From Amoebophrya sp. A120 (lineage: Eukaryota > Protista > Dinoflagellata): a DNA stretch of 64,000 bases. A model generated the notes under the pieces. The model was not told where the DNA came from. It saw only the letters and a list, made by a program, of their open reading frames with translations, and did not search any database. The stretch lies in the NCBI GenBank assembly GCA_905178155.1, contig CAJINV010000013.1:2910158-2974157 (forward strand), written 5' to 3'. Shown in pieces: positions 2,371 through 62,900 of the stretch (its first letter is position 1; each line of letters opens with the position of its first letter). The translations under genes and the position numbers were made by a program.

Positions 2371-3995
2371 AGGCCAAGCTCTCTATGCTCTCTTCGAAGG
2401 ACGCGGTGAACTTCAAAGGGCCGTGGAACGTGGATTGGCCCCTTCTTTACCGGGAAACCACGGATGCGGACTTGCTGAAAATTACGGACTCGTATCCATT
2501 GCAAATTTACAGTCTGGGTCGGTTTGTATATGCAGGTGTTGATTCGCCTAGAAGGTCGGACACGCATCCCACAGCAATTTTTTTTGTTCTGGGGAAGTAG
2601 TCACCTCCAAGATTACATACTCCTGCCTCTGTTGCACTTCGAACGCGCCTGCTTCTGTTGCCCATTCAATTTCTCAGCGGACAGGGCGAGACAAGGCCTC
2701 CGGCTGCGCTGCTTTCGGTCCGTGGTTCGTAGGAGGGTCCGCGACTTCCTTTCATCATGCTCATCACCTATCATGAAATTCCACCGAGATAGCACATTCG
2801 GGCTTTGCAGCAACTGCGAAGCCGCGCGGCCCTGTTAATTCAATGCAGCACGAATACTCATGGTCGGAATTACGGGCGAGGCCCGAAGGCCACTCAGCAC
2901 GAAGCGCATCGGCTCACCGTGTTTTATCTTTCAGGCCCATGACAACGATCCCCGTTATTTAACCGGGAAAGGGGCCGACGGACCTGGTCGGTCTTTATTT
3001 GGTGGGGACTCTGCTCGGAGGCGCATCATGCTCAGCAGATTCGGTGCTTTAGACCCTGACTCGGAAGGGTTCTGATCACATTGCCAACAGCTTCGCCTGA
3101 GAAGTTTCGCTCGCTTGCTTTTGCGGCGTGACAACGCGGGCGAAGGTCTCGCTGACCGTGAGCGTGATTATATATAAGTTTGCACTTTTGATCTCGGCAC
3201 AGACAAGATGTTTGCACTGGATACCAAGCTCGTGAGGGTCACTTTTCCGGTGGTTTTGGATGCCGACCAGTGCACGAAGGTCCGCGCTGGGCTGCAAAAG
3301 ATGTGCTGCATTCAGGATATGCACCGAAAAAGTATGGCACTAGTAGTAATCGCGCAACAAATTTGATCTGAAGAGAAAATGGAACCTTTGAGGACGCACA
3401 TTCAGCTAAGAAAGTACTATCGTCATGCACGCTTGCGATTAGTATTAGTACGAGTGCGATGCTTTGACACAGGATGCAAGACCCAATGTCCTTCACGGAC
3501 CTTGAGAAACGGCTCTGCAACTCCATCGCGACGTCGTACAACAAGCTGGAGGCGACGACAGCGGTACTCTGAGTAAAAACGTCCCCATGCCCCCTCTCAT
3601 GCACAGCCACATGTATGGGCAGCGTTTCTTTTCTAGTACTGCTTTTGAATTTGTCATCCTATGAGGAGAGGATCGATTTGGATTTCGACTTCACGGGCTT
3701 CACGTGACCACAATGCGAGCCCAGCCTTGTCATGCGCGACAGCCAAAGCCTCTCCATGTGTGTAAGTAGCAAAGCCCCCACCTTGACATTGACTATGACA
3801 TCGGGACATTTTCACACAGGATAAGCGGACGCAACCTGTCCCCCGCTGGTTTTCAAGGAAGTCTGCGGGAACGACAACTTGAGCCTCAGTTCGACGGACG
3901 AGTCTCTCGGGCCGGAAGATTCGACGGACGGGCCGCCCCAAGGCCTCGCTTCTTCGAATGCGGCGGGCGCCGCAGAGGAAGCGGGATGCTGCTAA
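2371..3995 (+). CDS. Hypothetical protein, spliced (3' part of gene; 5' exons not defined)
   Basis: Removing elements 3318-3476 and 3565-3823, each with one TSD, gives a continuous frame LVRVTFPVVLDADQCTKVRAGLQKMCCIQDPMSFTDLEKRLCNSIATSYNKLEATTADATCPPLVFKE...EEAGCC*. The upstream exon (..KGPWNVDWPLLYRETTDADLLKITDS) joins in frame if 2493-3223 is also removed. Confidence 0.55.
2493..3223. mobile_element. Candidate long or degenerate introner (family A'), boundaries uncertain
   Basis: Left end TATCCATTGCAAA..GTCTG matches the reverse complement of the right end (CAGAC..TTTGCACTGGATA). The flanks ACTCG/CCAAG are not a good TSD, but removal keeps the frame. It could instead be two elements with an internal exon. 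Confidence 0.35.
3318..3476. mobile_element. Introner, short family H (~160 bp)
   Basis: TAT...ATG ends, TSD CAGGA/CAAGA. Similar along its length to 42849-43005 and at the right end to 58430-58592. Removal restores the frame (CIQ-D-PMSF). Confidence 0.7.
3565..3823. mobile_element. Introner, family C
   Basis: TACTCTGAGTAAAAACGTCCC ... GGGACATTTTCACACAGGATA; perfect TSD AGCGG; frame restored (TTA-D-ATC). Confidence 0.8.
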
Positions 3996-5317: not shown

Positions 5318-6941
5318 ATGCCCTTGGTCGCATCGGCGCCGGCCGGAGGTGCGCGAAGGAATTTGTCAAGCGCGGTGGACAGTTCCTGTTTCGCGGCGCT
5401 GCAGCACCCCGTGAATACGTTGCGTTGCTTCGTGGTGTTTGTGCTACTCGTCGCATCCTTCCTGCCCGCCTACTCGACCGACCGCCTGGTCACCAAGTCC
5501 TCTCGGTGCGCGGGGCTGGCCACCGGGGTGGAACTTGTGTGGCAACCAGTCAAGCAGTTTTGCTTCGCGTTCTTGGCCCTGGACCTGTTTGGCTTCGTGC
5601 TTTGCGGCCGGAGGACATCTTCAACGGGCACTATCGCAGCAAGCAGCGCAACCTCGTCTACCAGTGGCGCAGCGGCAAGAGTAGCGGCGGGGTGCAGCAG
5701 TACCCACACGCGATGGTGGGGGCGAAGAGAAAAGCTTGTCGTGCGGCTCACCATGCTTTTCTTTTGGCTGTACGCGCTCTACGGTTGCTACGTGTACGGG
5801 GCTATGCATTTTTGCAAATATCATGTGTGGCTCTGGAAGATTGATGCCAGATCTGTCACGCCTGTCCGACATGACTCTGAACGAAGACAAAGAACTCTGT
5901 GACGCCTGAGCGCGAAAAAATCTCTTTTTTGGTATGCGGAGTATGCAAAGCATGGCAGAGCAAAAGCTTGTGGCCAAAAACATTCAGGGCTGCGTAACAT
6001 TGCAGTGTGACTATCGATCAAGATAAATGTTAGCACTTTACAAGGTAGTTTCCAGACCCAGGCACCTTTGCATTCGATGAATGCGGGCATAGCGGAGTCC
6101 AGGTTCAAATGCTGGAACGGACCAATCGTGGTACTGAAGTCTTGTCGTTGAAATTTTTTCTGTTGAAACAAGTTCCACAGCATTGATTTTTTTCAGTTTC
6201 TATTCTGATTCGTGTGCTTGTTGAAGAACTTTATTCTTCGTTCGTGCTCCTGAGGTGGCGCAAATTTGCAATGGTTGTACGATGATGAAAGTGCGTTCTT
6301 CTCGATCATCTTCACAACGCGAATAAACCTATTACCACCAGCTGACCATCCTTGCCATCTGGGTCTTTCTGATGTGGGTGCCGGTATGGTGGGCCTTTTT
6401 CGAGCAAGACCGAATCTCCGCGACAAATTCCGTATCCCCAGTAAAAATGTCTCCGCCACGTAGTCAAGGTTGGAAATCTGCTAAACAAATCCATAAGTTT
6501 TGGCACGGTCGCATGACAATTTTCGGTTTACTGCAGAGTGAGTGGTCTCGGCGAGCTAGGTCAACCGCATCACAAATTGATCGTCATACTTATCCCGCTT
6601 AGAGCATGACAAAATCCCAAATACCAGCAGAAAGCTCCCCTTCGGGGGTAGTCGCGCATGACACGCAGTCTGAGCATGTACAAATTTGCATGACAAATAA
6701 AACTCGGAGCTGCAGCTGGGGATGTTTTTACGCAGGATATTCCGCCTCCTCGCGCTACGTGATCCAGGAAGATTTAGAGGACGAGTTGCAGGACCTGGAA
6801 GAGAACCCGGTGTCGTATCAGGTTTGGCGTAGCGGAAAGATGCTGTACGCCAGTTTGACCAAAAGCGAAGTTAGGAAGTGGCTGGTCGCGAACCAGGCAG
6901 ACCGATGGACAGATTGTGTGGTCAGAGAAGTGCAGCTCTAG
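5318..6941 (+). CDS. Hypothetical multi-pass membrane protein, spliced (middle junctions unresolved)
   Basis: Hydrophobic ORF 5318-5802. The last two exons join across 6433-6739 as WVPVWWAFFEQDRISATNS-A-SSRYVIQEDLEDELQDL...REVQL*. Linking these into one gene is inference. Confidence 0.45.
5803..6083. mobile_element. Degenerate introner (family A/A'), ends approximate
   Basis: Left TATGCATTT..TGCAAATATCATGTGTGGCTCTGGAAG and right TTCCAGACCCAGGCACCTTTGCATTCGATG resemble family A TIRs; TSD not resolved. Confidence 0.45.
6433..6739. mobile_element. Introner, family C
   Basis: TATCCCCAGTAAAAATGTCTCC ... GGGGATGTTTTTACGCAGGATA; perfect TSD TTCCG; frame restored. Confidence 0.85.
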
Positions 6942-7570
6942 CGAAGTGCTGTACTACAGCTTCAACAATACAAACGAAGGTGCAAAACATGTAAGTCCTT
7001 TTGTTTCTGTGCGGGAACCACAATCCACAGATTGAGGGAAAATCGCACACGACCCATGGGAGGATTCCTCTGTCGTGAAAGATGCCCCCGTCGTGATTGT
7101 AGCGCGTTGTATTTGATTGTGTTTTTGAAGGTAGACGGATTGTTCTGGAGGTGTTGTGAGCGAGCATTAGCAGTCCTACATCGGAGAAGTTGTACTTGGA
7201 GTGCTGACTTGCTCGTCATCTTTGTTTATCATCTGAGCAGAGCAAGAAGAGCAGGTCGAACTGGGAGTAATTTCGCGGGACGGATTTTCGAGTTAGCGTA
7301 CGAGAGACAAGACCTCGTGAGCTGCGTCATCGAGGGACAATCTATCATGTTGAAGCTAACACTACACGACGCAAGCGCTGTCCTCGCCATTACAACACAG
7401 TCTCAGTGAAGGTTTCATCGACCCTCGTAGTGCGTTGTGCAAGTCCGGCCGGGAAAGGGAATGAATTTTTCCCTTCTGCTACTATTACTTGACCACATCA
7501 TGAAATCACGACAGCGTATGTACAAATAGAATCACCTTTATTTCATCGTACAACCACCTTCACAGCCACC

Positions 7571-8794: not shown

Positions 8795-8900
8795 GTGTCA
8801 TACTAACTCGTCCGTGTGCAGGGAAATTAATAGATAGGTACATCTACCAGTGAGCAAAAGGAACGTATTTCCGAGGATAAAAGCGGCGGGCGGATTCAAG

Positions 8901-10816
8901 ATGTTCTTCTTTTACACGAAACTGATCAGGTTGAAGGAGCTGCTGCCGAGCTGGCTGCACTTTCCGCCGGTTGTGTGGGGCCTGTTCGTATCAACTGTAA
9001 AAATGTCTGGGTCTGGAAAAATTCATGTTTGTCATGCTTGTCTGGCATGACTCTTAAATCTGTCATGCACGTTACCCAAGAGCTCCGTTTTTCTGTGATG
9101 CAAAAGCGCAGTTTGTCATGCAGAATAGGCAACACCTGAGAGCTCAGAAACTTCTCATGCTGAGTCAGCATTTGTAGCCTCATCATGAGACGCCCCCCAG
9201 CATCACAAGTTCCCAGACCCAGACATTTTTACTTTTGATAGTTCGCTTTTGCGTTGATCGCGCACTTCATGACGCAGTACATGTATCAAATGCAAAAATG
9301 TCTGGGTCTGGAAGAATGCGCGATTTGTCATGCAGCTTTTCCATGCGCCATGAGGTCTGGAATGCAGGACCTAGCATGACAGATTCTATGCGATCTCTCT
9401 CATGCCTGTCCTGCATGAGAAACTCCCTCCCGACTTGGTCAGAACTGGACGACTTTTGGTAATCATGCAACGCAGATTTTTGCATGCTTCAGATGTAGCA
9501 TGACAAGTTGCATTCTTCCAGACCCAGACACTTTTGCACTTGATAACATGACGCACCGAACGAAGCAGCATCGCGGCCCCATGGCGGGGAAGGGAGGAGC
9601 CGCGGTATCAAATGTCAAAATGTCTGGGTCTGGAAGAGTCATGCTGTTTTTGCATGACACAGAAGGTCTGGCATGGAAGCTCTAGCATCACAGGTTTCGA
9701 GAAGCTTCCGCAATGCCGAATCCGCATGACAAGTCCCCTACTTTGCTGACAGAAAGTGTGCAGCTACTTTTGCTACGTATGCATGAGAGACTTTTCTGTG
9801 TTCTGAAATACGCATTACAAGTTGCATTCTTCCAGACCCAGACATTTTTGCATTTGATACGCGGCGCAGAGGATCAACTCCATGTTTCAGCAAGGCAAAG
9901 GCGGGCATTTGCTGAAGGGGAAGAACGCCGGGAATTCCATGGAGGAACTCAGTATCGGAGGGAGAGGACTCTTGGAATCAACAGTGAGCTTCGTTCTTTC
10001 TGCGGTCATGAGAAGAAGCGTAAACGTATGGATTCATTTTCCGCAATCGGTCGCAGCAGCGCTCGCGCTAAGTGGTTCGTTGGGGATATGACAGCACACC
10101 TAACCGCCGCTTCGCAGAACCCATGAATGATCAGAAGTGTGGCTTGCTTGCTCGCAAAAATACACATTATGTGGTTTAGGTTTTGTTGCACCACCTTCGA
10201 TAATAAATTTGATTGATTCAAGAGTTTTTTTTCCGCCATACGCTTGAAGATGGTCGGTATGGACAACAAGGGCGGGATTGGTGGCAAGGCGGACCTGCTG
10301 AACCTGATGAAGGGCGCTGCTTCTATGGGTCCCGGCGGGAAGCAGGCCGGTGCGACGGCGTTTCCCGGTGCAGTTCCCGATTTCGGCAAGGGCGGGGGCG
10401 ACTTCACGTTTGCAAACGGCAATGGCGAGGATGATTTTGACTATGACGACGAGGAGGATTACGAGGTGCCGGCTAGTGGGGGAACTACAACATCAGCAGC
10501 CCGGGATAAAAATCCCAAAGCGCCGGGAGGTAGTAATACCAGTACAACTTCTAGTAGAGCGAAAAATATCAATTCCGAGAATTTGGGCAAGGGTAGTGGT
10601 ACTACGAACAGCAACAGAGCTAATCAGCTGCACCAGCAAAATAATAAATCCGGTGACAATTGGCAGGAGCAACTGGTGGAACTGCTTTCGGACCAGAACC
10701 TGGATACAAAAAACACCACGGTGGACGAGATGATGCGGATGCTGGCCGGGGAGGATGGTGCTGAGGCGACAGGTGTTAGTAATACGAGGAATGGCGCGGC
10801 AAAAAAAGTGAAGTAG
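8901..10816 (+). CDS. Hypothetical single-TM, Gly/Lys/Met-rich protein; three introners and one GT-AG intron
   Basis: Removing 8989-9240, 9284-9545 and 9606-9859 (plus one TSD each) and GT-AG intron 9984-10249 gives MFFFYTKL...VVWGLFAFALIAHFMTQYMTHRTKQHRGPMAGKGGAAAQRINSMFQQGKGG...LLEST-MVGMDNKGG...KKVK*. A second frame is also open across the three small exons, so start and frame are less certain than the junctions. Confidence 0.65.
8989..9240. mobile_element. Introner, family A
   Basis: TATCAACTGTAAAAATGTCTGGGTCTGG ... CCAGACCCAGACATTTTTACTTTTGATA (~28-30 bp TIR); perfect TSD GTTCG. Confidence 0.92.
9284..9545. mobile_element. Introner, family A
   Basis: TATCAAATGCAAAAATGTCTGGGTCTGGAAGAATGC ... 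GCATTCTTCCAGACCCAGACACTTTTGCACTTGATA; perfect TSD ACATG. Confidence 0.93.
9606..9859. mobile_element. Introner, family A
   Basis: TATCAAATGTCAAAATGTCTGGGTCTGGAAGA ... TCTTCCAGACCCAGACATTTTTGCATTTGATA; perfect TSD CGCGG. Confidence 0.93.
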
Positions 10817-11219: not shown

Positions 11220-14200
11220 ATGTTGCGCGCCACGCTGTCTGTGACTTCGAGCCAGCAGGGCAATCCGTACCTGGAGTTGGAAGACGAACTGTCGAGCAGG
11301 CTGGTGGCACGCAGAGAGGTGGAAGAAGAGGAAGACGAGCCACACCGGCATCCAAGCAGAACAACTGTCCGAGGCGGAGCTGGCTTGCCTGCGTGGATGT
11401 TCTCGGCGTGTTCTACTCCGTGCTCAACGAGTGACACTTTTTCCACCTCCTTCACGTCGACCTTTGCGAGAAATGTGAGTCTGTGCGTGTTACTTGTGAA
11501 GACGACCCTGCCGTTTATTCTGTCGAACCTGCTGACGTTTTTTCCGGACGTGGTGAACGTGTACGTCGCGAGTGGGAGCCTTGTCTATAAAAATTCCGGC
11601 GCATCTACTTCGGACTCGGAGCTTGTAGATGTCTCCCCACCCGCATCAACACGGACGACTCTAGTCCCGGCCATTGGCCTCGGGCAGCTGGTGCTGAACG
11701 GGCTGACGTTATCTCTCGTGTCCGGCCTCAACCAAGGCCTGGATGTGTACGTTCCGAACAGCCATTTGGCGAGCGGCAAAGAGTACTTCGCGCTGGTCTA
11801 CCTCGGGCGGGCGCACGCGCTGGATTTGCTGCTCTTGGTGCCGGCGGTGCTGGGCATTCTGCTCCTGGCCGGCCCGTGCGGGCTGGACTTTTTGCTCGAC
11901 GCCTACCTCGCTTTCTTCCCGGAAGCGGACGGCACCGGTGTCCGGGGCATCGGCGGCGCGATCGTTGCGCAGAGCGCCGCGTTCTAAGAAACGGGACCCA
12001 GTAGAAGGTGTAGTACTCCCGCTGCGCTCTATCGCTCGCACCTCGCACCGCTGGCGTATGGCTGCGAAAGAGCGAAAGCGATCGCACTAGTAGAGACGGT
12101 TTGTAGTAGGTATGGTTTCATCGGAAGGGAACGTGAAAAACTGGTTCATGCGAGTGGGCGCGCAGTATGGTCAACTATACGTGAAGACGAAAATGTCGGC
12201 ACATGCGTACTTAGATAGAGTTGCAACCGTAGATTATGTCATCCGCGATCCGCTCGGTATACATTCATAAAAACATATCTTGCGTAGAGTTTTTGTCCTC
12301 GAAGATCGAGGCCCTAGTGAATCATTTTCAAATCTGAGCGGCATGAAGATCACAAGAAATCGCATCTTTTTTTCCACTTCGGCGCCATACCAGTCTTCGG
12401 TACTGCTGTTGCGGCGCGCCGTTCTACGTGTTCGCCCACACCGCCTACCGGTATCGTAAGGAAAAATCCCTCCTCCCCATATCGAAAAGGCACGCCTCAG
12501 AGAATTTGCGATGCTGATTTGTGACCGCAGATCGTGGCGGTCTTGCAAGAAAGCAACGGCATAGGCTCCGCCCCATTATGCAGCCGGTTTGTAATGCTGT
12601 TGGGCCTACAGCATATACGTTCCCCATACTAAGCGCCTAGGCCAAAACCGTGCTACATTGGCACGATATGGGCCTGCAGTCCTCTACTGCAAGACAAATC
12701 CGATTTGTGTACGCAAATCCAGCATCAGACTTTTCATTTTGATGCGAAGAGGGGGGATTTTTCGTTTTGATAACCGGTTCACCCTCTTCCGGGGGAAGGT
12801 GGTGCTGCTTCTGCCCGTGCAGGTGCTCACGTCGCTCCTCCACCTTTTATGGTGCTACGTCCTGGTAGCAGTCGCGGGTCTGGAAGTGCCTACCGCGCTC
12901 GGGCTGGCGAATTCGGCGACCTGGGTGCTGCAGTTTGTTGGCTTCTATATTTTGCTCTGCCAACTGGAGTGCAGCTACGAGAAGTTTGACCTGGCGGGAG
13001 GTGCAGTGGACCCCGACCAGTCGTCTGCAAGTGCGGGAGCCGCCGCGGCGGAGGGACCACCGAGGAAGCTTCTTTTTCCCGAGCATGATCTGCGTGACGC
13101 GCCGTTAGAGGACGACGCGGGCATGAAGATCCCTCCCCTGCCGACGCGAGGCTCCCGGTCGGGCTCGTTTGCCGGGTTGAGCCTGGATCTTATCGACACG
13201 CACGTGGCCTTGACGGCGTCCAGGCCCGTGGTGGTGGACAATGCTTCACCCGCGCGAGCGGAAGTACAGGTAGACGAAAGCGTGTTGCCTGTCCATGCAC
13301 GAGAGGAGGAGAGCAGAAGCAGAGCCGCAAGTAGAAGTGCGGAAGCAGTTTGCAAAACACAAAATGAGAACAAACTACCACACGACTACACGAAGAAATT
13401 GTTGCCGGAAGAAGTAGTGAAGAATTCCGCTAATGCAACAGCTTCTGCGGCGTCTCTTCACACTTCCGTGCAAGAATCTCCGGAGCGTCAGTTTCTCGCG
13501 AGATCCTCCACAGTGGGCTCCTCATGTGCCGCCGGTGCCGCCAGCAGCGCTTTCAGTGCAAGTCGTACTGGCAACTACGAGCAGATGCAGGAGACCACGG
13601 GGAGCGACGCTATGATCGAAGCACGGCGCAACAGCAGTACTTCTGCCAGGAACGGGGATTACAAAGGCAGCCCCTTGATGCGGTCTTCAACGGCAGGACA
13701 GTACGTGGGCCAGACCACTAGAACAACGAACAGCCCCCGGAAGCAGTCGCGCGCCCCGCGCGCACTGCAGTACCAGGCGATCCGGGACTACCGGGAGAAA
13801 TCGCTCGTGTTGTCCCGTCGGGAGAGCAGCGGTTTGGACGCCGCACCACCACATGCGGATGATTTTGACCAGGTGTGGGCACCGGGCTCTCTGAATGGAA
13901 GTAGGCATATTATGGCACCAGAAGATGTTACTGGACGTCGAAGGAGGAGCAGCATGACGAGCGTGGATCCGTTTCAACAAGATCTCGACGACGATCCTCC
14001 TGCGCGTCTTCCCGATGGTAGTAATGTTGAAAATGCGAGCAGATTGACAAGTTCGTCTTCCACGACGAGCCTGTTTGTTCATCAGCAGCGAGGAGAGCTG
14101 CAAAGCGGCCGACGGAGCGTGACCGGGAGCTCTCCTGGCGGTGAAAAACACGACCACCTCCGTGAGCGGTACTATCCTAGTGCAGAGGTGGTCGGGGACA

Positions 14201-44900: not shown

Positions 44901-44975
44901 AACCCGCCCCCCGACGCGCCGGAAGCTCAAGCTGATGCAACTCAGTACTCGGAATTTTACTGCTTTATTGTCTAG
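38987..44975 (+). CDS. Large RS/SR- and Lys-rich low-complexity protein, spliced
   Basis: ATG at 38987; GT-AG introns 39198-39361 and 42541-42714; introners 42849-43005 and 43064-43384. All junctions are in frame through to ORF 43479-44975. The Ser/Arg/Lys tracts suggest a nuclear, disordered protein (inference). Confidence 0.75.
42849..43005. mobile_element. Introner, short family H
   Basis: TAT...CAGGATA ends, perfect TSD CGGAA. It interrupts a Q/K/R/E-rich helix (DLRTR-K-AQQQKE). Confidence 0.78.
43064..43384. mobile_element. Introner, family B, inverted relative to 12452 and 27089
   Basis: TATCATAAGGAAAAATCCCCCCTCCCCATATCGAAA ... TTTCAATATGGGGAGGGGGGATTTTTCCTTACGATA; perfect TSD GAACG. 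The internal sequence corresponds to the reverse complement of 12452-12772. Confidence 0.93.
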
Positions 44976-46230
44976 CTGCGTCGACCACGACTTGGTAATT
45001 TGCTTTAATATCACCGATACAGCAAATAGCAAGTTGTGGAATTATACGAAACGCCACGGAAGTGTGCTGAGCGTCAGATGTTGGCAGAAAAGGAATAAAA
45101 ATAGAGAGAGATGAGTCTGCCAAATACGAGTTAGCTGCAGCTACGTAAAAACTCTTCGTAATGTTTCAAAAATATTCCTTACTTTCGCTTCATTTTTTAT
45201 AGAACACGCACTATTTCATAACAGGGCGACTCCGAGTGAGGACCCGGAAGAACAGAGCAGACGGCTGGAAAGCCATGTCGTGCATGGCAGACAAGTCGAG
45301 ATCGACCACTTTTATGCATTGCAGTTCGATGCCAGCACATCATCCGTTTGGTTCTGTCAGTGTAGTGCCCGTGTGAAGTAGCTCTTTTTGATGTGCGAGC
45401 TCATTCACTTTCGGGTGCTTTCGTGACGGTATCTGTAGGGTATAGATTGCTAACTGAATTTGCGTTCCTCCTCATGTATCCCACAAATCAATGGAGAAAA
45501 AGCATCAGATGGATGCGCAACTGGATGTTGAGCTGGCATTTTGCTGCAGGATATTATCAAGAGCAGTACTATGAACTGCAAATATCGAAGATCGGATCGC
45601 TAGCTGGTGTAGAACAACGTCCGAACAACATAAGTACACAAATTTTCGAAACGGCAAAAATGTTCCACTAGCTACAGTTCCACCGAACGAAAACACTCTG
45701 TCATGCGGGAGCAGCAAGAGCGGCTTTCTATGTTACTTACCAGTTTCGCGGAAAGGCCGGGAGGACCGCCATACGAAGAAGAGAGTCAGGTCCTTGGCTC
45801 TGCAGTGTAGTGCCAAGCTGATTTCTGGTGTGCATTTTTTCGGGTCCTTGCGGTCCTCCTCGATTTAATGTCATCTGTGCATGAAGAAGAAGAACACAAA
45901 TCATTTTCGGGGTTCCATTCCGCCCAGCCGAGACACATCTTTGATATTTGCAGCAGTCGATAACAGCACCGTATAAGCGTCGGAGGAAAATTCGCAGGGC
46001 AATACGTCATCAAGAACCGTTCTCACCAGGAGAGTACTGTTTGTGTTTTGTCTTTCATCGCGCAAAGGTCGCAAACTCCAGGCTCAGAAGTTCTATCCTG
46101 GGTGAGAGATCGTTATTTTAGGTGGATACAAAATCAGAACTATCAACATCGATCGATTGGTAGAACGGTAAGTCTTCCCAGTCCCTAGATGTTAGAAGTA
46201 TTTCCTCTAGTACAATTGAACAATCTATCA

Positions 46231-49927: not shown

Positions 49928-52900
49928 ATGATAACCCGACATATTTTATTTGCCAAGTTTTCTCTCCTGCTCACTACCCTGACCGGTTGGGATTTGCGGT
50001 TCTGCGAAGGCTCAGCGACGACCCCGTTTCTTCCGAAGAATACGAGACAGGACTACAACAACAGCATCGACGCAAATGCGGCTTCGAGTACGAGCTCTAC
50101 TTGGATCGACGCTCGGAACAAAACTACTCCAGATACGATCACGGCTGCGGATTTTCTGCAGTTCCAAAGAAGGCGATCCTGTGCGCGCGGGACCGCGACG
50201 CTTGTGTGCGCTTTCAATTTCTGTTTTGCACTCAGCTGGTTTTCAGGGAGTGGCTCAACTTCGGTGAGGAATTATAGCCATGGTCTTGTTCCACATGGAG
50301 GTTCATCTATGCAGACGCAAATGCTCGCGGTGCACAAGAAAGCAAGGCCGCAACTCAGGACGTTCGATGACACGGCTGCGCTGCAGGAGAGCATTTACAC
50401 GTTCAACGACACCGCGCTGGACCAACATGTCGCCGAGTATCAAATGCAAAAATGTCTGGGTCTGGAAGAGTTGGAACTTGTGATGCAAACTCTGGAAGAC
50501 GCAAAACCTTGTGTTGCATGAGCGCCAAAAGCTGTCCATTTCTTGGTCCGCAAGTAGGAAGCTTCTCATGCAGGACAGGCATCATGAGGCGTGCTCAAAA
50601 CCTGTGATGCTTTTGCCTGCATCAGACGCTATTTGCGTGATCCGAAATATGCATGACAAATCTCGTAATCTGGCAGACCCAGACATTTTTACATTTGATA
50701 CCGAACCAGGAGAATCAATTTCGAGGTTCAACGCGGAAGGACTGCAGACCGGGTGGCGCTCCGAGTCGCTTCTACCTACATTCAGTCCTCCTTTTGGAAT
50801 GAACATGAAGTCCGCTAGTGTAGGAGTTCCAGGAAGTAGAGCAGGGCCTCCTTCGACATACACAGGAGCTTCTGCGGAGGATCACATAGGTGTTCCGCTG
50901 CCGTCCGCTCCCAGGGACGAGTCCCCCGGCGGTTTTCCTTCCTCCAGCAGATCGTTGCTGGACCACCAGCAGACCACCACCACGCAGGATCTTGAGCTCG
51001 GTCGTTTTGACTTCGAGCAGCGTTTCGGGAAGGAGGAGCTGAAAAGGAGCGTCGTGAACAAAAGCGCACTGAAACGCAACGTGGTGGGCGACACGTACTC
51101 GAAGGAAGAAGAGCAGGGGTACGGCAAGGCGGCGCTCCACGCAGCGACACCCTGGGCAGTTGTGCCTTTTCCTGTCGTGCAGCCGCTGGGCGGGCCGATA
51201 TCGGCTTCTGGGGTTGACTTTTTGCGACGGGGAGCGAGTTGGGACACAGAAGTGAGTCAGCAGGACAAGATTAGCTCTGACCCGCGAAGAACGGCGGAGA
51301 AGGGAACAAAGCAAGTCCGAGTTCCTCTTTCTTCTTCTGTGTCTTCCCCAGCCCCGGACGGGAAAGATCAAGTTGGAAGAGGTGTTGACGCGGAAAAGAA
51401 AACCACTCCGAGCGGAGACGACCCAAGAGCAGGCCAGGCACTCTACAAAACGAAGCACGGGGCGATGTACGGCAACGTAAAGGAGTTCGAGGGCACCGTC
51501 GTGCACGAATTTTTAGGCATTCCCTACGCGAAGCCGCCGGTCGGAGAACTGCGGTTCAAAAGCCCGCAGGATGTGGAGTCGTGGTAAAATAAGTAGATGA
51601 GAACACTTTTTTTCTGCATGGCATGGAAATCAGAAATAATAACTGAAGCCACTTTCCTAAAAGGTTATTTGAAAAATTCAGAAGACCCATCAACATCGAC
51701 AGGTCTCCTCGGATTCTGGACGCGACGCAGCAAAGATTTTACTGTCCGCAGAAGCCTGTCGAGTACATTCCGAAAAGGCAGCAAAGCGAAGACTGTCTTA
51801 CCCTTTCTGTCTGGGTGCCACAACAGATTCCTGAACAAGATAAAGCTGGTGGTGGTGCCCGGGAATCAACGACGAAAAGAACAACCACAGGAAATAGAAT
51901 AGCGTCGAGGAACGAGCCCAAGCGTAAAAATATTACTAAAAACAAGCTTCCCATTCTCGTCTGGATCCACGGGGGCTCGTTCCACGCCGATTGGCCGAAT
52001 CCGAATCCTCTTTACGACGGCACGAAACTGGCCGCGGTCGGGAATGTTATCGTCGCAACGGTGAACTACCGGTTGGGAGCTGTCGGCGCCATGTCGTTTT
52101 CCGAGTCGCAAGACAAGATTTCCGATCTTCTTCCCGGGAACCAAGCGATGCTGGATCAGCAGAAAGCGCTCGAGTTCTTGAAGGAGAATTTTGCGTCAAC
52201 CTCGTCCTCGCTGCACTCCCTCGGCGACCCCGACAGAATTACGGTGTTTGGGCAGTCGTCCGGCGGGGTGCAGACCGCGTTTCACTTGGTATCCTTCCTG
52301 AACAAAAAAGTCAACCTCTTCGGCGCGTTCCCCATGGCGAACTTCGCTCTGCATCACCAGTCAGAACCCCTGAAGAACGCCCTGGAACTGGGGAAGAAGC
52401 TCGGGTGTGGCAAAGTAGGAGGTCACAGCGAGATCATGTCGGGCGGTGGTCATCTTGGTGATGGACACGATCAAAATGCATCGACTTCTTTGGAGGGTAG
52501 TAGTAAGGCAGGAAAAATTCGTGTGGCGGATGAGCCAGAAATTACAGGAGCAGCTTCTGAAGCCGGATCTGAAATACAGCAGTCTCTCCTGACGTGCCTG
52601 CAGCAAGTCCCCATCGAGCAGATCGTGAATCTCCAAGACTGGGTCGGGGATTGGACCACGTGGACCCCGGTGGTCGACGGCTTTATGTTCCACAAGCCAG
52701 CAGAAGATGTACGTGAGTTGGCCGGTAGTTCAACATCGAGTACTACTGAGAATCCCCACGATAGATCGTCTTTTCTATCCCAGTCCAGCGCGTTGCCAAA
52801 GTCTTTGAAAGACTCCAGCGCGTTCGACATTTCTCCGATGAAAAACGTCGCGCTGCTTGCCGGATGCAACTCTGGAGAAGCCGGTCCCGACAAATCCATC

Positions 52901-54469
52901 GTGAACCAGGACCAGTTTGACGCGGTGGTGCAGAATATGGTGAAGAAGACGGGGTGGTTAAAAACTACAAATCGCGACATGTTGGGAAAAAAACCTTCCG
53001 AAGAAGGTCCACGAGGAGCAAAGCAAGGTCCTCTGACGGAGCAACAGCTCGTTGCCGTCCGCGACTTTTACTTGAACAGAATCTCGGCCGACACGAAGAT
53101 CGTTTCCAAATACAACTACGGGCTGGACTCCGGATTTTCGAAGTATGCGTTAGCTGCGCAGGCGGTCTCGAACGACTTGGATCCGATCCGGGAATTGCGG
53201 GAGTTGGCTTCCTTGCATTTTGACGTGCAGAGCGGAAGGAGAGGACGGGGAGGACGGAGTGGCGAAAAAATCGAGGAAGAACGGCCAGGAGAACAGAGCT
53301 TAGGGTCCGCGAGACCGTGGTCCTCACAGCAGGATCAGAACCACTCTGGAGCTGCACCAACACCAGCAGATGAGGAACACGAGTTCGCATTTTTGGCACG
53401 AAAGAGGGCCGTTAGTACTTCAACAGATGACAGAATAGCAAGCCGCATCAGCAGCTCTACTACCCCGGACGGGAAGGCCGAGCCGGAGTTTCTTTTCGGC
53501 TCAACATCTGCAGGCAGCACCGGAGCTGCATCAGCGTCGGAGGTGCAGCAGCAGGACAAAGACAATGATAAGCCACGAGCCAAAACCTTTGTCTACGAAT
53601 TCACGCACGGGTCCTCCTTCGAGCCGACGTCTTTCCTTTATGACAGTGCACAACTCCCCCTTGCAACAGCAGCAACACAATTGCTGGCATAAATGCAGCT
53701 TTTGCATGACAAATTCGCGACCGATTCCAGTGCTGTTTCGGCTTCCAAAAACCTGTCATGCAAGAAGTGGCAAAGAGAAAAGGGTGGATTTGGTATTTTG
53801 CATGACAAATGAGGGGGAGGGGGAGTTGTGCATTGTCATATCCTTCCGATCAAACCGGACCCGAGTTCGACCAATTCGTCCGCTGCGGTCGAGAAGTGGC
53901 GGCAACAGTGGGACCAGTGGCAGTCGATAAATGAACAGCAACGGATGAGGGAGGAGGAGAAGCAGTGGTACCACTACCTCGCCCCGCACGGTGCGGAACT
54001 GGATTTCCTGTGGGGCCGGGCGATTGACTTGGGGACGGAGGAGGAGAAATTATTGTCGAAATTGTTCATGAAATACGTTGCGAATTTCGCCTACACAGGG
54101 GACCCAAACTCCGGACCGCACGAACCCCTGCCGATCCCGTTCTGGCCGGAGTTTGTAAATAGCGGAACAGTAATATCACCGCGAGGAGGAGACTCTTCGT
54201 CAGGCCCATCCGTCGGTGGCGGCGGAGGGTCAATGGTTATTGATAATTTTACCAGGTGGGAATGGGATAGTAGTTATGCACCAGAGGAAAATGAAAATAT
54301 GGAAAAGCAAACGGCAACAACGTCAAAGATAGTGGCAAACGGAGTTTCTATAAAAACGATCGCGGATGCCTTTGGCCCGCGGGGACCGGAGTTTCAGTTT
54401 TGGCGAACCTTGCTTGAGTTGCCGGAGGGGGACATGTTCCGTCCGGATTTTTTGAACCCGCAGCCGTAA
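49928..54469 (+). CDS. Type-B carboxylesterase / cholinesterase-like alpha/beta hydrolase, probably secreted or membrane-anchored
   Basis: Motifs FLGIPYAKPPVGELRF, SEDCLTLSVW, VWIHGGSF, NYRLG, GNQAMLDQ, GDPDRITVFGQSSGG (nucleophile Ser), GCNSGEAG (Glu), HGAELDFLWG (His), NFAYTGDPN, and a hydrophobic N-terminus. Introners 50438-50700 and 53639-53840; GT-AG intron 51584-51702. Confidence 0.9.
50438..50700. mobile_element. Introner, family A
   Basis: TATCAAATGCAAAAATGTCTGGGTCTG ... CAGACCCAGACATTTTTACATTTGATA; TSD CCGAG/CCGAA; frame restored (HVAE-PGES). Confidence 0.92.
53639..53840. mobile_element. Introner, singleton family G
   Basis: TATGACAGTGCACAACTCCCCCT ... AGGGGGAGTTGTGCATTGTCATA (23-bp TIR, 1 mismatch); perfect TSD TCCTT; frame restored (TSFL-PIKP). 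Confidence 0.92.
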
Positions 54470-56070: not shown

Positions 56071-56076
56071 GACACT

Positions 56077-56385: not shown

Positions 56386-56535
56386 CATTTGCATTCTTTT
56401 CTGCCAAGGTAGTTAATATCTATACCATGATAAGATTTTTATTTTTGCTCGCGACACAACGGCCACCTATAGGATTGTAAGTAGCCAGTTTAGATAATTG
56501 CTGAGAACTTTTACAAACCAGCACCACAAAAGAAA

Positions 56536-58845
56536 ATGACGCTCACAGCGGGCAACTCGTCGTCTAGCACGGCGTACAACCCGAAGATCACGCGCATCGG
56601 TCTGCACCACAACGTGACCAAGAGAACGCAGCCCTTTTCCTCGGAAGTTAGCAAGGTACTACGTGACTCGTACACAGCAAAAATCTTAATCTTCTGTAGT
56701 TATTCAATGTGCTGGCAAGTAGTCTCCAGCTGGAATGCGCATCATCCGAGAGGCACACGTAAATACTTTTTTTTTCGCGACAAGAAATTATGAAAAAACA
56801 GGTGAGTTTCGGGCGCAAGGGGCAGCCCGGACTTAAGCCGACGGACTTTTCGTGCAGTCTGATCCCATTCTCTTTCCTGACGTTTACATGGGCAACAAGT
56901 GAACCGGGGAAAATCAAGGCGTTAATCAAGTCAGGGGACCATGGTAAGACTCTTAGAGAAACAGTAGCTGTGTTGCGGTTCTATTGCATGACAGTGTAGC
57001 TTTGTGCTGCGTCTTTACGCATGGTAAAGACAAAAACAAAAATGAAATGCGAATCAATTCCTCTTGTGTCGACGAAATAAACCAGATCTTTTCAAGCTGG
57101 ACGGAGATAGAGAGCGAAAAAACGACATTCCCTTGCGGCTCCCGAAAACCCCCGAGGCGCTGAAAAAGCTGGAGGACATAAATTTGAGCACTCCGAAAGG
57201 GCAAAAACCGCCGGTCGTCATCAACCGGGACAGGAAAAACAAAGCGAAAGTTGAGTCCTTGGAAATTTCCCTGGATATCGGCGACAGTTTGATTTTTCAG
57301 GAGAAAATCCAGGAAAACGCGGCGGAGCCGGTGGATCACGTGCTGCAGATCGTCTCCTACAAGCCCACCAGCTCGGTGTCCCAAAAGGCCTTCGTCGCAA
57401 AATATCTGCGACTCAAACACGAAGCCGATAAGGCGGAAGCCAAGAACGCGGAGCTGCAGAGGTATATCTGAGTAAATAGCGCTGTTATTGGGATGGATTG
57501 TTTATTACGGTAAGTTGTGCACGAAAAATGCATAATAAATTTCCTTCGTGGCTTTGCACAAGAACCAGATGCGAAAAATAGAAATTATCTTGTACTTGCT
57601 GATGTCTTTTGGGGAGACGCGAGTCACAAAAATTTTCACCTTAAGGCAATACGCCCCGCTGGTCGCGGAGCTTGCCGCGCCTCCGCAGAAGAAGCAGGCC
57701 GAGCTAGAGACTTTAATCGGGAAAAAGAAGCTACTGCAGACCAGGTGCGAAATGATGGAGAAGAAGTTTGAAAAAGAAGAGACGGCGGCGAAAAACGCCA
57801 ACGAGGGCGAGTTAGAGACAAAGCGAGAAGCCAGGCTGGCGGTGCAACGCGAGATTGAAGAAGTGCAGAGGAGCATTGAGACTGGTAAAGAGCGTAATCA
57901 ACGTTATTCGTTTCTTTTTTAGATCAGGAAAAATTCAGCTCTCACGGTAAGTAACGTGATGTCAAAAATATTATGCGCAAGAATTTAAATTTTATCATGG
58001 ACAAACGCAAAAATTGCTTCTACTTTCACCAATACGATGCGACTACAGAAACACACATGGTGAATCCACACGCGCGCGCGTTGCAGGGGGTCGGGCAGTA
58101 CAAGGGAAAATTCAAGCTGGAAGACGAGAAAGCAGAGGCCGACGTGACCGACCAGATCCAACTGATAAGGAACGCCCAGTACAATTTTTTCTTTACTAGG
58201 CTTTGTTTTGAAAAGTTGGCTGCAAGTTTTTCTACAGGCATGCGCCACGACTTTCGATATTTATAACTTTCGATAGTTAGCTGACCATGCATTCATTTTT
58301 ATTATGTAGCTTCTGCAACTTTATCTGACGCATAAAAGATTTTCTCTCGCTTCTTGCTCCACAACAGGCCCGACACGCTGGATAAAAACGATTTTCTGAA
58401 ACTGAACGCGGATCGAGGCGACCTGTTCGTATGACCTGCAAAAATATCGCACTCGTATAAATGCATTGCAAATAATTATTTCCTCAGCATGAGAAACAAA
58501 ATTTGTAATGCAGATTTGCCTTGGAAACAAGATTTGTATATGCAAGACTTGTATTTAGCATTTGTACGAGTACGATGCTTTTGCACAGGATAGTTCGACG
58601 ACGACGACAAATTCGGGGGAAAGTCACCCAAGCGAAGGAAGTTATCGGGCGCAAACGACACGCCGTTTCTCGCGGACACACCGCTGGGGCTTGTGGAAGG
58701 TCAGACTCCGGGGGCGACGCCCGCATACGAGGGGGGGCAGACTCCGGGGGCAACGCCAGCGTATGAAGCAGCGGGCGAAGAGGACGAAGCAGACAACGAC
58801 TCGTCCCCGGTCGAGGACGAAGAAGACGACTTGTTGGCGGAGTGA
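56536..58845 (+). CDS. Hypothetical nuclear protein with acidic, TP-repeat C-terminus; several GT-AG introns and one introner
   Basis: Exons join through canonical introns (e.g. 56647-56801, ~57463-57645). After removing 58430-58592 the end reads GDLFDDDDKFGGKSPKRRKLS..EGQTPGATPAYEGGQTPGATPAYE..EDEEDDLLAE*. PKRRK resembles an NLS. Confidence 0.65.
58430..58592. mobile_element. Introner, short family H
   Basis: TATGACCTGCAAAAATATCGCACTCGTATAAATGC ... GCATTTGTACGAGTACGATGCTTTTGCACAGGATA; perfect TSD GTTCG. Confidence 0.88.
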
Positions 58846-59946: not shown

Positions 59947-62900
59947 ATGGCCGGTGCGGAGCAGGAGCAGCTGGGCGATTTGCGCCGCACGCTAAACGAA
60001 GCGCTGGAGGTGAAGGGCGGCGCTGGGGGTGCCACTCCGAGCGGGAGTGGGCCGCCGAAAAGTACGATGCTCGTGTTACCCGGGTCGCCGGACCATCCAC
60101 GGACAGGTACTGGAGAAAACATCAGTGCGGGGGGAAGCACCCAACACGTGCCGCCGCCCAGCCCGTGTCACTCGGCAATGTACAACTTCATTTATGAAAT
60201 TTGACTAACGCGGCCATCTTCGAATTTGTGCGGACATAAGCCCGGCGTTCTTTGAGTATGTTCGTAGTTGTATTTATTCACGACCGAAAAGTCGGACTTT
60301 TTGATTTTGTTCGGTAGATCATGAGTATTTTGTTTCCATCAGCATGGAAAACAATTCCAACCTCAGCGGCCTGCCGTCCGTTCTCGGGAGTCAGGACGGC
60401 ATTTCGACCGGGCAGATAAATTTTCCCGGATTATCATTATCCTCATCACCATCACCGAACCCGCCGCCAAAAGACGGAGGGGGTGCAGCTACAACTTCTA
60501 CGTCTTCTACTGCCGAAGGTCCAACTAGTAAGGACAAAGAGAAGAAACACAGTCAAAACCAGGTCAACTGCAAGTCTCGTCCGGGATCGATCGCGCAGCA
60601 GTTGCAGGTGGTGCACAAACGCTCGGACATATCGCAAGAAAAAAGTGTTACAGTTACACATTGTGTTGCGAAACAAGCAACACAGGCAACCTCTGTCATG
60701 CCGGATATGTATAGGAGCCTCGTTTCATAGGTGTTTTCCCGTGCGATTTCTGCATTACAAGTTTTCTCCCTCATGCAGAGAAATTTGTGTTGCTGAATTG
60801 ACCACAAATGTGTAACTGTGACACTTTTTTCGTGGGATAGGACACCAGTACCAGCTCAGTAATTTCTTCGTCCCATCGGCACAGCCACAGTCAAATCCTG
60901 GCGATGAACATTGCGGAAGAGAGTGAAGAAAGGGATTGTTCTCATCATGCCGCCCCAGACGGCGGGCTTCTCGGAAGCGGCACAAATGTCCGCACCGGCT
61001 CCTCCGCATCTTCTCCGAGCAACGCAAACACCAATTTTTCGTCATCCGCAAACCAAAACGTCGCGTCGGCCGCCATTCTCTTGCACTCACCGACGACACA
61101 CGACAGCAACAGTGTGGAGAAAAGCGTTTCCACGGGGGGCGATGTTACCGTGGAGAAAAACCTTTCGGGAAATGCGCAGTCTTTGGATTTGCTGGAGGCG
61201 AACCAGACGAAAGGCCTGGGGTTGCAGCAGAGCCACTCCACCCGGAGCGCGCGGCAGGTGTGCTCCCCGCTAGCCCCGATCAAGTCGGAGCGGCACGCCG
61301 AGCAGGTGTCGAAGCAGCTCACTTCGGAGACGGATTACAGCGATAGCAGTGTGCCGCTGGCCGACTGTGAGGCCGCAGGCGCGCACGCCACGCGGTCCAA
61401 CATGATGGGAACGGCGGGGGTGGACGTCGTGCAGAAGATGGACTCGGAGGAGGACGAGAAATTCGCGACGCCGTTCGGCGGCTACTTCTCGGTAAAGTCG
61501 GAGGCCGCGGCGGACGCGGTGGAAAACAGTCCCTATTTCGGCTACGCGTACGGCTTCACGTGGTGGACGTTTGCGATGGTGCTGGGGATCTGCATCGGGG
61601 GGGTCAACCTCTGCTTCCACGCCGCCTACCACAGCATCGAAGACTCGCTCGTCTGGGCGGCCGAAGAACTCTTCTACACCAACGGCGACGACTATCGCAA
61701 GAAAAAAGTGTATATAGTTACACATTGTGTTGCAAGACCGGCAACACAGATCATAACCTTTCTCATGCAGGAAATGCTTGGGAGCCTCGTTTCCTTCCTG
61801 TAATTTTCCCTTATGATTTTCGCATTACTCCCTGCCACACAGATAAAATTTGTGATGCAGAAACTCCAACAAATGTGTAACTGTAGCACTTTTGTCTCGT
61901 GATAACGACGACCGGACCGCAGCGCAGGCGATCTCGTACCACCTCTTCCGCGCGTATCAAATGTAAAAATGTCTGGGTCTGGAAAATTGGAACGTGTAAT
62001 GCGTGTCATGCACTCCTGGAAAATCTGTGTTGCATGAGCAGCAAAACAGAGGCTTTCTTTGTCATGCAAAAACGCAATTTGTAATGCGTGCTAGGCATCA
62101 GCAGACCTCTCAAAAACTTGTCATGCTTGGCTGCCATTGGAAGCGCTTCAATCATGCGCAATTCAGCATCTCAAGTTTCCAGACCCAGACATTTTTACAT
62201 TTGATAGCGCGGTCGGGGTGTTAATTTCCAGCATTTTTGTCGGCGTCGTGGTGTCCATGCTGGTGCCGGAGTGCAGCGGGGGCGGCACGATTTCCGTCCG
62301 CGCGTGTATCGCGCTCGGGTCTTTCGTACCCGCGCACGTCGGACTGGCAAGATTTGCGCTGTCGGCGGTCTACATTGGGTTTGGCAATCCGCTCGGCGCG
62401 GAGGCGCCGACGCTGCACATCTGCGCCGCGGTCAGTTGCTCGCTGTACTGGCTCTGTCAACAGTACCAGAAGATATCCGTCTACTTCCCGGCGGAGAACA
62501 GAACCACGATGGTGATGTGTGATTTTGGAGGATGTGTGTAGAAGTCGTGTTTGGGTCTTGACGATGCTCTGCCTCGTGGTGCAGTCGTGTTGTGTCACGC
62601 ACAAAAGTTTCATCCTGTGCATATGTGTATGAGTAGAGGATTTGGTCGTGAGTCGATTGTTCGCCGGTCCGAAATCTAAATCTTCCTTGTCGACAGGTTA
62701 TCGTCGGCTGCACCTGCGGCCTCGCCGCAGCCTTTTCCGCCCCCATCGGCTCGATCCTGTATGCGATGGAGGAATTTCGGCACTCGCTCGGGGACAGCAA
62801 CATGTACACCACTCTGATCACCACCGCGTCGCTTGTTGCCGTGGTTACCACGCAGTTAGTGGTCACGGGGAAGTTTTACGAAACGTGCGAGGGCGGCACG

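Follow-up and report, generated by a model that had tools for sequence, protein, structure and literature searches.

Short elements with terminal inverted repeats (TIRs), likely non-autonomous DNA transposons, interrupt coding sequence of Amoebophrya sp. A120 and are, with a probability of roughly 0.8, cut out of the message by a relaxed spliceosome, with the 5' cut one base ahead of the initial TAT and the 3' cut four bases past the final ATA (register -1). By their anatomy the elements very likely belong to the introner class already published for A120, and since the class is published, what was first described amounts to a rediscovery. The analysis adds a precise rule to a published account that, in its sections on A120, leaves borders and mechanism open. 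A fixed register shows where lariats or circles should be sought, how test introns could be built and how non-canonical introns may be re-annotated.

Elements and host genes

The window (the whole stretch of 64,000 nucleotides analysed) contains 25 TIR elements of 157-351 bp between 3318 and 62206, found by scans with and without an assumption on the terminal bases. They start with TAT (23) or TAC (2), end with ATA (22), ATG (2) or ACA (1), and are bounded by a 5-bp direct repeat that is perfect in 20 of the 25, with one mismatch in four and two mismatches in one, so that the rescans reproduce everything the sequence-only reading had stated on number, size, ends and repeats. Five locally shuffled windows, scanned without bias as control, gave 10-14 hits each, none with a TAY start and 0-2 per window with a perfect repeat; a scan without the repeat requirement returned 105 hits against 40-64 in the shuffles and, as was a loose scan, was too noisy for counts. 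Older elements with decayed repeats, overlooked in the sequence-only reading, are also present (9953, 45313, 45570), and 2093, 12057, 19382 and 20275 are probably copies of this kind.

Elements and microexon (position, strand, description)
3318..3476, +, TAT..ATG element, 159 bp; repeat CAGGA/CAAGA; found by scan, in a short ORF without known identity
3565..3823, +, TAC..ATA element, 259 bp; repeat AGCGG; found by scan
6433..6739, +, element, 307 bp; repeat TTCCG; an X1 contig piece begins at 6739, as far left as an exact removal could cut
8989..9240, +, element, 252 bp; repeat GTTCG; removal deduced from X1 contig-record length
9284..9545, +, element, 262 bp; repeat ACATG; removal deduced from X1 contig-record length
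9606..9859, +, element, 254 bp; repeat CGCGG; removal deduced from X1 contig-record length
9953..10240, +, older element; decayed repeat CTCAG/CGCTT; putative intron 9952-10244, GT..CT, register -1 only
12452..12772, +, element, 321 bp; repeat ACCGG; MATE-like gene
14440..14634, +, TAC..ATA element, 195 bp; repeat GGTCC; MATE-like gene; sole GT-AG option (14436-14635)
15540..15890, +, element, 351 bp; MATE-like gene; repeat TGGCG/TGGGG, which could inform on the register
26364..26642, +, element, 279 bp; repeat ATCTG
26659..26955, +, TAT..ACA element, 297 bp; repeat CAACC
27089..27414, +, element, 326 bp; repeat GCAAG
27515..27767, +, element, 253 bp; repeat GACCC/GACCA; could tell register -1 from 0
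30168..30425, +, TAT..ATG element, 258 bp; repeat CGCCC
42849..43005, +, element, 157 bp; repeat CGGAA; weak hairpin; joint skips 162 in X2, X3
43064..43384, +, element, 321 bp, inverted relative to 12452; repeat GAACG; joint skips 326 in X2, X3
45313..45553, +, older element; no repeat left (ACTTT/TTATC); registers -2 or -1
45558..45568, +, 11-nt microexon between two older elements; its letters lie inside joint 45311-45967 in X2, X3
45570..45962, +, older element; AGTAC/ACAGC; registers -1 or 0; CT..AG at -1
47178..47489, +, element, 312 bp; repeat CCAAC; joint skips 317 in X1, X2, X3
48071..48321, +, element, 251 bp; repeat CCATT; joint skips 256 in X1, X2, X3
48467..48745, +, element, 279 bp; repeat GGGAT/GCAAT; registers -2 to 0; joint skips 284 in X1, X2, X3
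50438..50700, +, element, 263 bp; repeat CCGAG/CCGAA; carboxylesterase gene; registers -5 to -1; joint skips 268 in X2-X4
53639..53840, +, element, 202 bp; repeat TCCTT; carboxylesterase gene; joint skips 207 in X1-X4
58430..58592, +, element, 163 bp; repeat GTTCG
60630..60839, +, element, 210 bp; repeat GGACA; CLC gene
61693..61904, +, element, 212 bp; repeat ACGAC; CLC gene
61955..62206, +, element, 252 bp; repeat GCGCG; CLC gene

Host genes (position, strand, description)
11220..16402, +, MATE-like gene; 1,296-codon frame without 3 elements and a putative intron 11984-12393
26305..37056, +, gene without family match; 3,103 codons after taking out 5 elements
38987..49030, +, gene of 2,412 codons after taking out 7 elements and 4 GT-AG introns
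49931..54469, +, carboxylesterase gene; PF00135 on three exons
59947..64000 and past the window end, +, CLC chloride channel gene; PF00654 on two exons

The TIR arms (48 arms of 24 elements) share more than their ends: T1 occurs in 46, A2 and T3 in 47 each and G9 in 41, followed by an A-tract (A11 41, A12 47, A13 45, A14 43, A15 37), and the internal motif TTGTNATGC is found 41 times in 7,375 element bases versus 6 times in 56,031 other bases. The earlier statement that the families have no TIR sequence in common beyond the terminal bases is contradicted by G9, A11-A15 and TTGTNATGC; its count of about eight families is fair, as BLAST grouping gives about five multi-copy groups and four singletons (14440 left out). 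Elements 26364 and 48467 are 94.6% identical. Folding reaches a z-score of -4 or better in 18 of 28 elements and is weak in the other 10, with -7 for 50438 and -1.1 for 42849.

Taking out each element with 5 nt, along with the hand-placed canonical introns, leaves one open frame in every host gene, which confirms the original claim on rejoined frames once those introns are counted in; when both repeat copies are kept, a premature stop appears at 10 of 11 sites tried. The family motifs had been described as intact, and this holds on single exons for the carboxylesterase (PF00135) and the CLC channel (PF00654); the MATE-like gene has no Pfam match and only a weak NCBIfam match (NF001214, E 7e-4). 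One exon of the 3,103-codon gene, used as a protein query, gave no match.

Removal from transcripts

Transcript-like contigs skip exactly the element length plus 5 nt at all seven repeat-bounded elements in 42600-55400, the joints being covered by sequencing runs X2 and X3 (all seven), X1 (four) and X4 (two). These four runs belong to one study that may underlie the published work, and their RNA status is guessed, no run being recorded as RNA; the X1-X4 contigs that skip elements also skip three GT-AG introns. Further, two pieces of a single X1 contig are separated by 239 nt, exactly what the removal of four elements plus one GT-AG intron would leave. Across the 25 elements, seven are supported directly and four (6433, 8989, 9284, 9606) indirectly. 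In DNA-like contigs of X5, elements are passed through unbroken (845-9013, 12698-16900) and element ends are met by many different flanks; X7 and X8 contributed 8 and 2 matching reads, all within elements.

Retention of elements in transcripts, for which the sequence-only reading had proposed to look, is not what the contigs display, since they skip the element and one repeat copy at 7/7 joints. With element plus 5 nt missing from the transcript the protein is unchanged. GT-AG ends are available in any of six registers at 1 of 25 elements (14440-14634) and lacking at 24, which together with the joints bears out both the transposon-derived, non-canonical nature of these introns and the proposal that most copies are removed without GT-AG. 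Some families have a CAG four bases ahead of their end, but a canonical cut there was considered and rejected: it would break the frame, and it is not the one seen in the joints.

A common cut register

Five junctions are informative on the position of the cut, their allowed registers being -5 to -1 (50438), -2 to 0 (48467), -2 to -1 (45313), -1 to 0 (45570) and -1 (9953, read from contig piece limits instead of a printed joint); at 20 of the 25 elements listed first the junction cannot reveal it. The five intersect only at -1, which indicates a single common register and lends weight to the earlier idea of one excision machinery. It is quite likely that introns of the form N-TAT...ATA-NNNN are the rule genome-wide, the message keeping repeat bases 1-4 on the left and base 5 on the right. 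Register -1 leaves both terminal dinucleotides free except for U at +2, in either orientation, and predicts motifs with T in second place, as is the case for all nine predominant A120 splice motifs in Table S4 of Farhat et al. (PMC7789003); strain A25 has TT-NN as its top motifs. At this register 9953 reads GT..CT, 45570 reads CT..AG and 44945-45224 reads GT..AG, ending ATA-ACAG; among the canonical introns, 5 of 7 well-placed ones begin GTAY. A fixed -1/+4 cut and a strictly 5-bp repeat across families are likely absent from the published text, figures aside.

A second assembly, of which 0.5 Mb was examined, yielded 356 elements called without a repeat requirement. Repeats of exactly 5 bp flank 270 of them, with one of 4 bp and none of 6 bp, and the ends are TAT..ATA in 329 and TGT..ATA in 3. 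The coding phase of the flanks keeps one repeat copy at 77 of 89 scorable sites; a plain open-frame test (203/241 for +5 vs 156-166 of 240-242) discriminates weakly. GT-AG ends occur in 12 of 203 elements, neither G at intron +1 nor AG at the end exceeds background, and AG at repeat positions 3-4 shows no excess (15/203). All 15 clusters of at least five members occur in both orientations. Selection for GT donors, suggested in the window by G before TAT (13/24, p 0.025), was discarded, the second assembly giving 64/203 against a background of about 31%. Variants at the element ends are unevenly spread over the two arms: TIR positions 1-2 deviate 3 times in the 5' arm and 16 times in the 3' arm, position 3 deviates 8 and 2 times, respectively. 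This asymmetry is post hoc, and in a stricter subset it is weak (2 vs 9 for positions 1-2 and 5 vs 2 for position 3, p 0.049).

Mechanism of removal

The arms are predicted to pair into a stem that would bring the ends together, after which the 5' end would be read as N|UAY, like the GUAY donors of the genome, and the 3' cut would be set by distance and not by AG. The removing machine is predicted, with some preference over other candidates, to be a relaxed spliceosome positioned by the hairpin; that branching takes place at the A which opens the final ATA is a doubtful further prediction. Removal of the weakly folding 42849 and 9953 shows that a strong hairpin is not required. A single orientation-blind code, N1-UAU[stem]AUA-N4, in which only U at +2 is read and both cuts are measured from the inverted ends, appears somewhat favoured. 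Were it true, the spacers (1+4) would equal the 5-bp duplication and each insertion of the lineage would be removed without scar, which would explain the tolerance of tens of thousands of exonic copies.

The strongest alternative, though on balance unlikely, keeps the same elements and the same fixed cut and assigns removal to a non-spliceosomal, structure-reading nuclease with a ligase or to another separate machine, which has also been suggested for the nonconventional introns of Euglena. It would account for terminal dinucleotides that are unconstrained beyond U+2, for removal in either orientation and for the lack of preferred pairing between first and last intron bases in the second assembly (GG or CA in 39/203 vs 27-33 at other positions). 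It would also suit the lack of U1 among the RNAs detected by Farhat et al. in A120 (PMC7789003) and the Euglena code, likewise a stem with fixed spacers (PMC12501133). On the side of the spliceosome, Farhat et al. found nearly all spliceosomal proteins and U2, U4 and U6 (PMC7789003). The 5' end also looks like that of the GUAY donors in this genome, and older copies, in very few cases, have GT and/or AG at this same register, suggesting a gradation into canonical introns.

Origin and mobilisation

Huff et al. (2016) reportedly derived introners from non-autonomous DNA transposons. The present elements have the features of miniature inverted-repeat transposable elements (MITEs), being short, non-coding and multi-copy, with TIRs and a target duplication of fixed length; an open frame of any kind is present in 30 of 263. 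They show TAT...ATA ends and 5-bp repeats of free sequence, in both orientations within genes and across many families. Full-length copies 90-96% identical to 10 of 31 window elements exist in the second assembly.

One transposase lineage would mobilise the elements in trans; it would recognise the shared TIR and TTGTNATGC sites and cut the target with a 5-nt stagger. An integrase-like (Ginger-like) enzyme is the best candidate, at about even odds. The uniform 5-bp repeat, the shared A-tract and TTGTNATGC support a single mobiliser, so that this part of the sequence-only reading is upheld indirectly, with no transposase found. None was recognisable by eye in seven longer copies (457-2,459 bp) in the 0.5 Mb, nor was an obvious one among ORFs in 14300-26300 inspected by eye (one of them also profile-scanned). 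Two viral-contig matches to a 19-base TIR word were set aside as chance, no element surrounding them. No empty genomic site was found, the fetched loci containing no ortholog of a host gene.

It is rather improbable that several unrelated transposon systems were at work and that splicing let only the TAT...ATA shape with a 5-bp repeat survive in exons. Element interiors do form 99 clusters at 80% identity, sampling inside genes is filtered by splicing, and Gozashti et al. placed A120 introners in several classes, in the rows of their survey that concern A120 (PMC12130899). All 13 TIR groups nevertheless carry the internal TTGTNATGC and most share the A-tract, and a splicing filter has no need of a motif lying on either strand at scattered positions.

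Sliding cuts and template switching

That the cut slides within the direct repeat, with no fixed register, is less probable still. Such sliding would agree with the 20 register-blind junctions, with 14440, which could use GT-AG at -4, with the borders given as variable or unknown in Farhat et al., where a figure legend implies sliding (PMC7789003), and with the mixed mechanisms and repeats of 2-6 in the 38 of 58 A120 rows seen of Gozashti et al. (PMC12130899). The five informative junctions, however, three of them with almost no repeat left, share only -1, and the top motifs listed by Farhat et al. are all NT-NN (PMC7789003), as expected from the fixed cut.

All evidence for removal comes from cDNA-derived contigs. 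A hairpin flanked by a short direct repeat is a setting for reverse-transcriptase template-switch artefacts. It is nonetheless very improbable that the skips are such switches, of the kind documented as cDNA-only false introns (PMC8240250), and that the elements stay in the RNA, because retention brings frameshifts or stops at 23 of 25 sites, including the conserved CLC and carboxylesterase genes, because the repeat-less 45313 and 45570 and the weakly folding 42849 are removed just as exactly, and because a single 5,543-nt contig crosses many junctions unbranched.

Comparison with known systems

The introner elements described for A120 by Farhat et al. (2021; PMC7789003) have inverted repeats that open with TAT and continue with seven variable bases and at least three A. 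Their boundaries carry 3-5 nt direct repeats (5 bp in an example figure), their length averages about 240 nt, and they come in many families, with a hairpin and with RNA support without GT-AG; in the A120 sections of that work splice positions are variable and no transposase is reported. The window elements agree with them in TAT start, A-tract, repeat, families and non-GT-AG removal, and the earlier acknowledgement that the class was known is thus borne out, down to RNA validation (PMC7789003). The A120 families of Gozashti et al. (2025) are likewise TIR DNA elements of 150-330 bp. Integrase-like ORFs occur in their family 38, which carries the annotation 'Ginger; 5-bp TSD, TA/TA termini', whereas the window copies have no ORF; the automated calls of that survey give repeats of 2-6 and several splice-site mechanisms with no single rule, in 38 of 58 A120 rows (PMC12130899). 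The Ginger2/Tdd elements of Bao et al. (2010; PMC2836005) likewise have TIRs, with 5-bp duplications in TDD-4 and TDD-5. Their transposase is of the integrase type (Gypsy-integrase-like in Ginger), while no transposase was found here, and Ginger ends read TGTNR where the present ones read TAT.

Introners of Aureococcus, Micromonas, Symbiodinium and Polarella are similarly MITE-derived, with TIRs, target duplications and families, some in both orientations as here, but they carry or co-opt GT/GC/GA and AG (10.1101/2020.10.14.339549; PMC11282704), whereas here 24 of 25 elements lack GT-AG and the repeat has no G or AG bias. The GT/GC...AG ends of U2-type introns are accordingly not those of the window elements, 24 of 25 lacking GT-AG in all six registers. 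The nonconventional introns of Euglena, an unrelated lineage for which circles are reported, resemble the A120 elements in paired ends, fixed unpaired spacers, lack of GT-AG and a proposed MITE origin (PMC12501133; PMC11282704); their code, N3-CDG...CHG-N5-6 with a purine at the exon start, differs from the N1-TAT...ATA-N4 seen here (PMC12501133). The -1/+4 rule thus parallels the stem-and-spacer code of Euglena, and it links transposition to splicing, as spacers that add up to the length of the target duplication leave the protein unaltered by an insertion; a fixed distance from the hairpin, if true, would make the splicing mechanism testable.

Elements and Host Genes

The window is eukaryotic, and all genes modelled in it lie on the forward strand. 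A scan with no assumption beyond paired ends and direct repeats abutting them found most of the elements, with TAT...ATA ends emerging unasked; five shuffles gave 10-14 weak matches per shuffled window, none with a TAY start. Once the list was completed by rule-based scans and one read-supported site (42849), the numbers were identical to those of the sequence-only reading (25 elements of 157-351 bp, the 5-bp repeat being perfect in 20). Its claim that excising an element plus five bases rejoins the frame also held: open frames of 119, 100, 669, 1,296, 3,103, 2,412, 1,314 and 102 codons are restored, together with a CLC gene running to the window's end, several of them additionally requiring removal of canonical introns whose positions were set by hand. 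Element retention would break the frame at 23 of 25 sites. Among the hosts it had named, carboxylesterase and CLC were confirmed by Pfam (5 of 13 exons scanned) and MATE is weakly supported.

Degenerate, internally deleted or one-ended copies occur outside gene models (2093-2345, 5819-6078, 18588-18656, 19382-19707, 20275-20602, 22656-22719, 24191-24272) and offer a useful test of the same rule in intergenic copies. A diverged local duplication (16633-18917 / 20780-21736; 86-90% in aligned blocks) straddles a 594-base N gap and GC-rich palindromes, and tandem arrays of 29-bp palindromic and 25-bp units lie between genes at 55434-56402.

Removal from Transcripts

Contigs from four runs of one study, presumed to be RNA, skip exactly the element plus five bases at all seven repeat-bounded elements of 42600-55400; they also skip three GT-AG introns there and thus behave as spliced transcripts. 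They extend over 42713-49660 and 50701-54901 and link seemingly distinct ORFs of 38987-49030 as a single gene of 2,412 codons, loose ends pointing to an additional intron near 42541-42714. Within 1-16900, a contig of the transcript-like run X1 has 239 letters between pieces ending at 8766 and starting at 10245, which corresponds to the loss of a GT-AG intron together with elements 8989, 9284 and 9606 and the older element 9953; another X1 piece begins at 6739, as predicted for exact removal of 6433. Contigs of the DNA-like run X5 read through the elements without a break. Of the 25 elements, removal is supported directly at seven and indirectly at four; five more lie in 1-16900 with no bridging joint among those listed, and nine lie beyond the two stretches compared with contigs. 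Reverse-transcriptase skipping, which would make these junctions an artefact, is unlikely because copies lacking a repeat are removed just as exactly and retention would break nearly all frames.

A Candidate Splicing Rule

A perfect repeat conceals the cut position, and a decayed one reveals it. Five junctions, three in older copies missed by the sequence-only reading, restrict where the intron may start, counted from the opening T of TAT.

Permitted intron starts at informative junctions
50438, decayed repeat: -5 to -1
48467, decayed repeat: -2 to 0
45313, older copy: -2 or -1
45570, older copy: -1 or 0
9953, older copy: -1 only

Only -1 suits all five, so the intron would be N-TAT...ATA-NNNN, a candidate single splicing rule; 9953 is the weaker case, its register being read from contig piece limits, and the other four also intersect at -1. 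At this register the 25 elements display 21 different end pairs and GT-AG in none, in agreement with the claim that most copies leave without GT-AG; one of the 25 offers GT-AG at a different register. T is the second base in all nine predominant A120 splice motifs of Table S4 (Farhat et al., 2021; PMC7789003), which agrees with -1, aligner preferences shaping that table.

The older copies 45313 and 45570 flank an 11-nt microexon (45558-45568, visible in contigs), and another lies between adjacent elements at 26647-26657. The MATE-like frame requires a putative intron at 11984-12393 (CT..AG), whose C/TAA start and ATA-CCAG end fit the -1/+4 shape; a TIR beginning at 12057 matches its 3' end better, but excision of 12056-12393 (GT..AG) leaves a stop. 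The RNA-supported GT-AG intron 44945-45224 (G-TAC start, ATA-ACAG end, TIR match 5/20) may derive from an old element that became canonical.

Mechanism of Removal

The predicted stem leaves one base unpaired 5' and four 3'; for 18 of 28 elements the fold is much stronger than that of shuffled versions. A spliceosome with relaxed requirements, positioned by this stem, would cut out the elements; this reading is preferred (probability about 0.6) because the N/UAY of the elements matches the GUAY that starts 5 of 7 well-placed canonical introns in the window, because the conserved A-tract places a run of U 15-19 bases upstream of the 3' cut, and because older copies at times display GT or AG at -1. 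Excision by a separate nuclease-ligase is a possible but less probable route. Since weakly folding copies are removed too, something besides the stem must contribute to the signal.

Generality in a Second Assembly

A TIR pattern search of metagenome contigs returned at least 136 stretches, of which the 79 listed are one assembly, its loci biased to one family. These loci hold full-length copies, 90-96% identical, of 10 of 31 window elements and no host-gene orthologs. Among 356 distinct elements called without a repeat requirement, 329 have TAT..ATA ends, and the repeat is exact at 5 bp in 270, has one mismatch in 45, is an exact 4 bp in one and 6 bp in none. A strand model (58/58 confident cross-validation calls correct) oriented 263 of 338; by the coding phase of the flanks one repeat copy is kept at 77 of 89 scorable sites, and every one of the 15 clusters with at least five members contains both orientations. 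Here the repeats favour neither a G as first intron base (+1) nor a terminal AG, so the G excess in the window is chance. TIR variants are rarer at the 5' arm for positions 1-2 (3 vs 16) and at the 3' arm for position 3 (2 vs 8; Fisher p 0.001, 0.049 in a stricter subset, comparison post hoc).

Common Sequences and Mobilisation

The families had been thought to share no TIR sequence beyond the terminal bases, which proved incorrect. The 48 window arms follow TAT-S-N4-G-N-AAAAA. Of 28 window elements, 19 contain the nine-base motif TTGTNATGC on either strand (41 occurrences in 7,375 element bases vs 6 in 56,031 outside), as do 332 of 356 second-assembly elements, representing all 13 TIR groups (vs 294 occurrences in the 386,979 bases not called as elements, uncalled copies included). 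Since the A-tract pattern and the motif span families, common ancestry and one common trans-acting protein are favoured.

One transposase lineage, acting in trans, would move the elements by cut-and-paste, as suggested by the fixed 5-bp duplication, the TIRs and the common internal sites. The single mobilisation machinery proposed earlier is supported indirectly by repeat and sites; no transposase-coding copy was recognised by eye among seven longer candidates. Five longer second-assembly copies, their ends intact and their 5-bp repeats exact (L015:4314-4770, L026:571-1051, L027:3862-4492, L043:4001-4972, L068:476-2934), seem to carry captured filler sequence; the last, which has a 415-codon low-complexity frame, may be two ends paired by chance. 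A few raw reads of run X7, which does not cover the window's genes, match an element end (9589-10152) next to other flanking sequence, a hint that the family is also present in another strain under that species label.

Relation to Published Systems

The accessible text of Farhat et al. (2021; PMC7789003) reports no transposase found in A120, and that of Gozashti et al. (2025; PMC12130899) an A120 introner family with integrase-like ORFs, a listed 5-bp TSD and TA/TA termini. Ginger2/Tdd elements, as far as their description was available, can likewise make 5-bp duplications, but have TGTNR ends unlike TAT (Bao et al., 2010; PMC2836005). The Euglena code is likewise described as a stem with fixed spacers (Nomura et al., 2025; PMC12501133). 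A sequence look-up for resembling elements in other dinoflagellates returned none.

A fixed register or uniform 5-bp rule was found neither in accessible text on A120 introners nor in 38 of 58 A120 family rows (Gozashti et al., 2025; PMC12130899); in the part seen of Farhat et al. (2021; PMC7789003) the splice position is called variable or unknown. The same text describes A120 inverted-repeat motifs with a TAT start, seven less-conserved bases and at least three A, and RNA-supported introners flanked by direct repeats of 3-5 nt. The window elements agree in TAT, A-tract, repeats and RNA support and, to that extent, are this system, as the sequence-only reading had recognized for the class; by this anatomy the window probably comes from A120 or a near relative. 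The element system is real, well supported and known as a class; the novel piece is the candidate splicing rule from five junctions, which renders an open mechanism testable.
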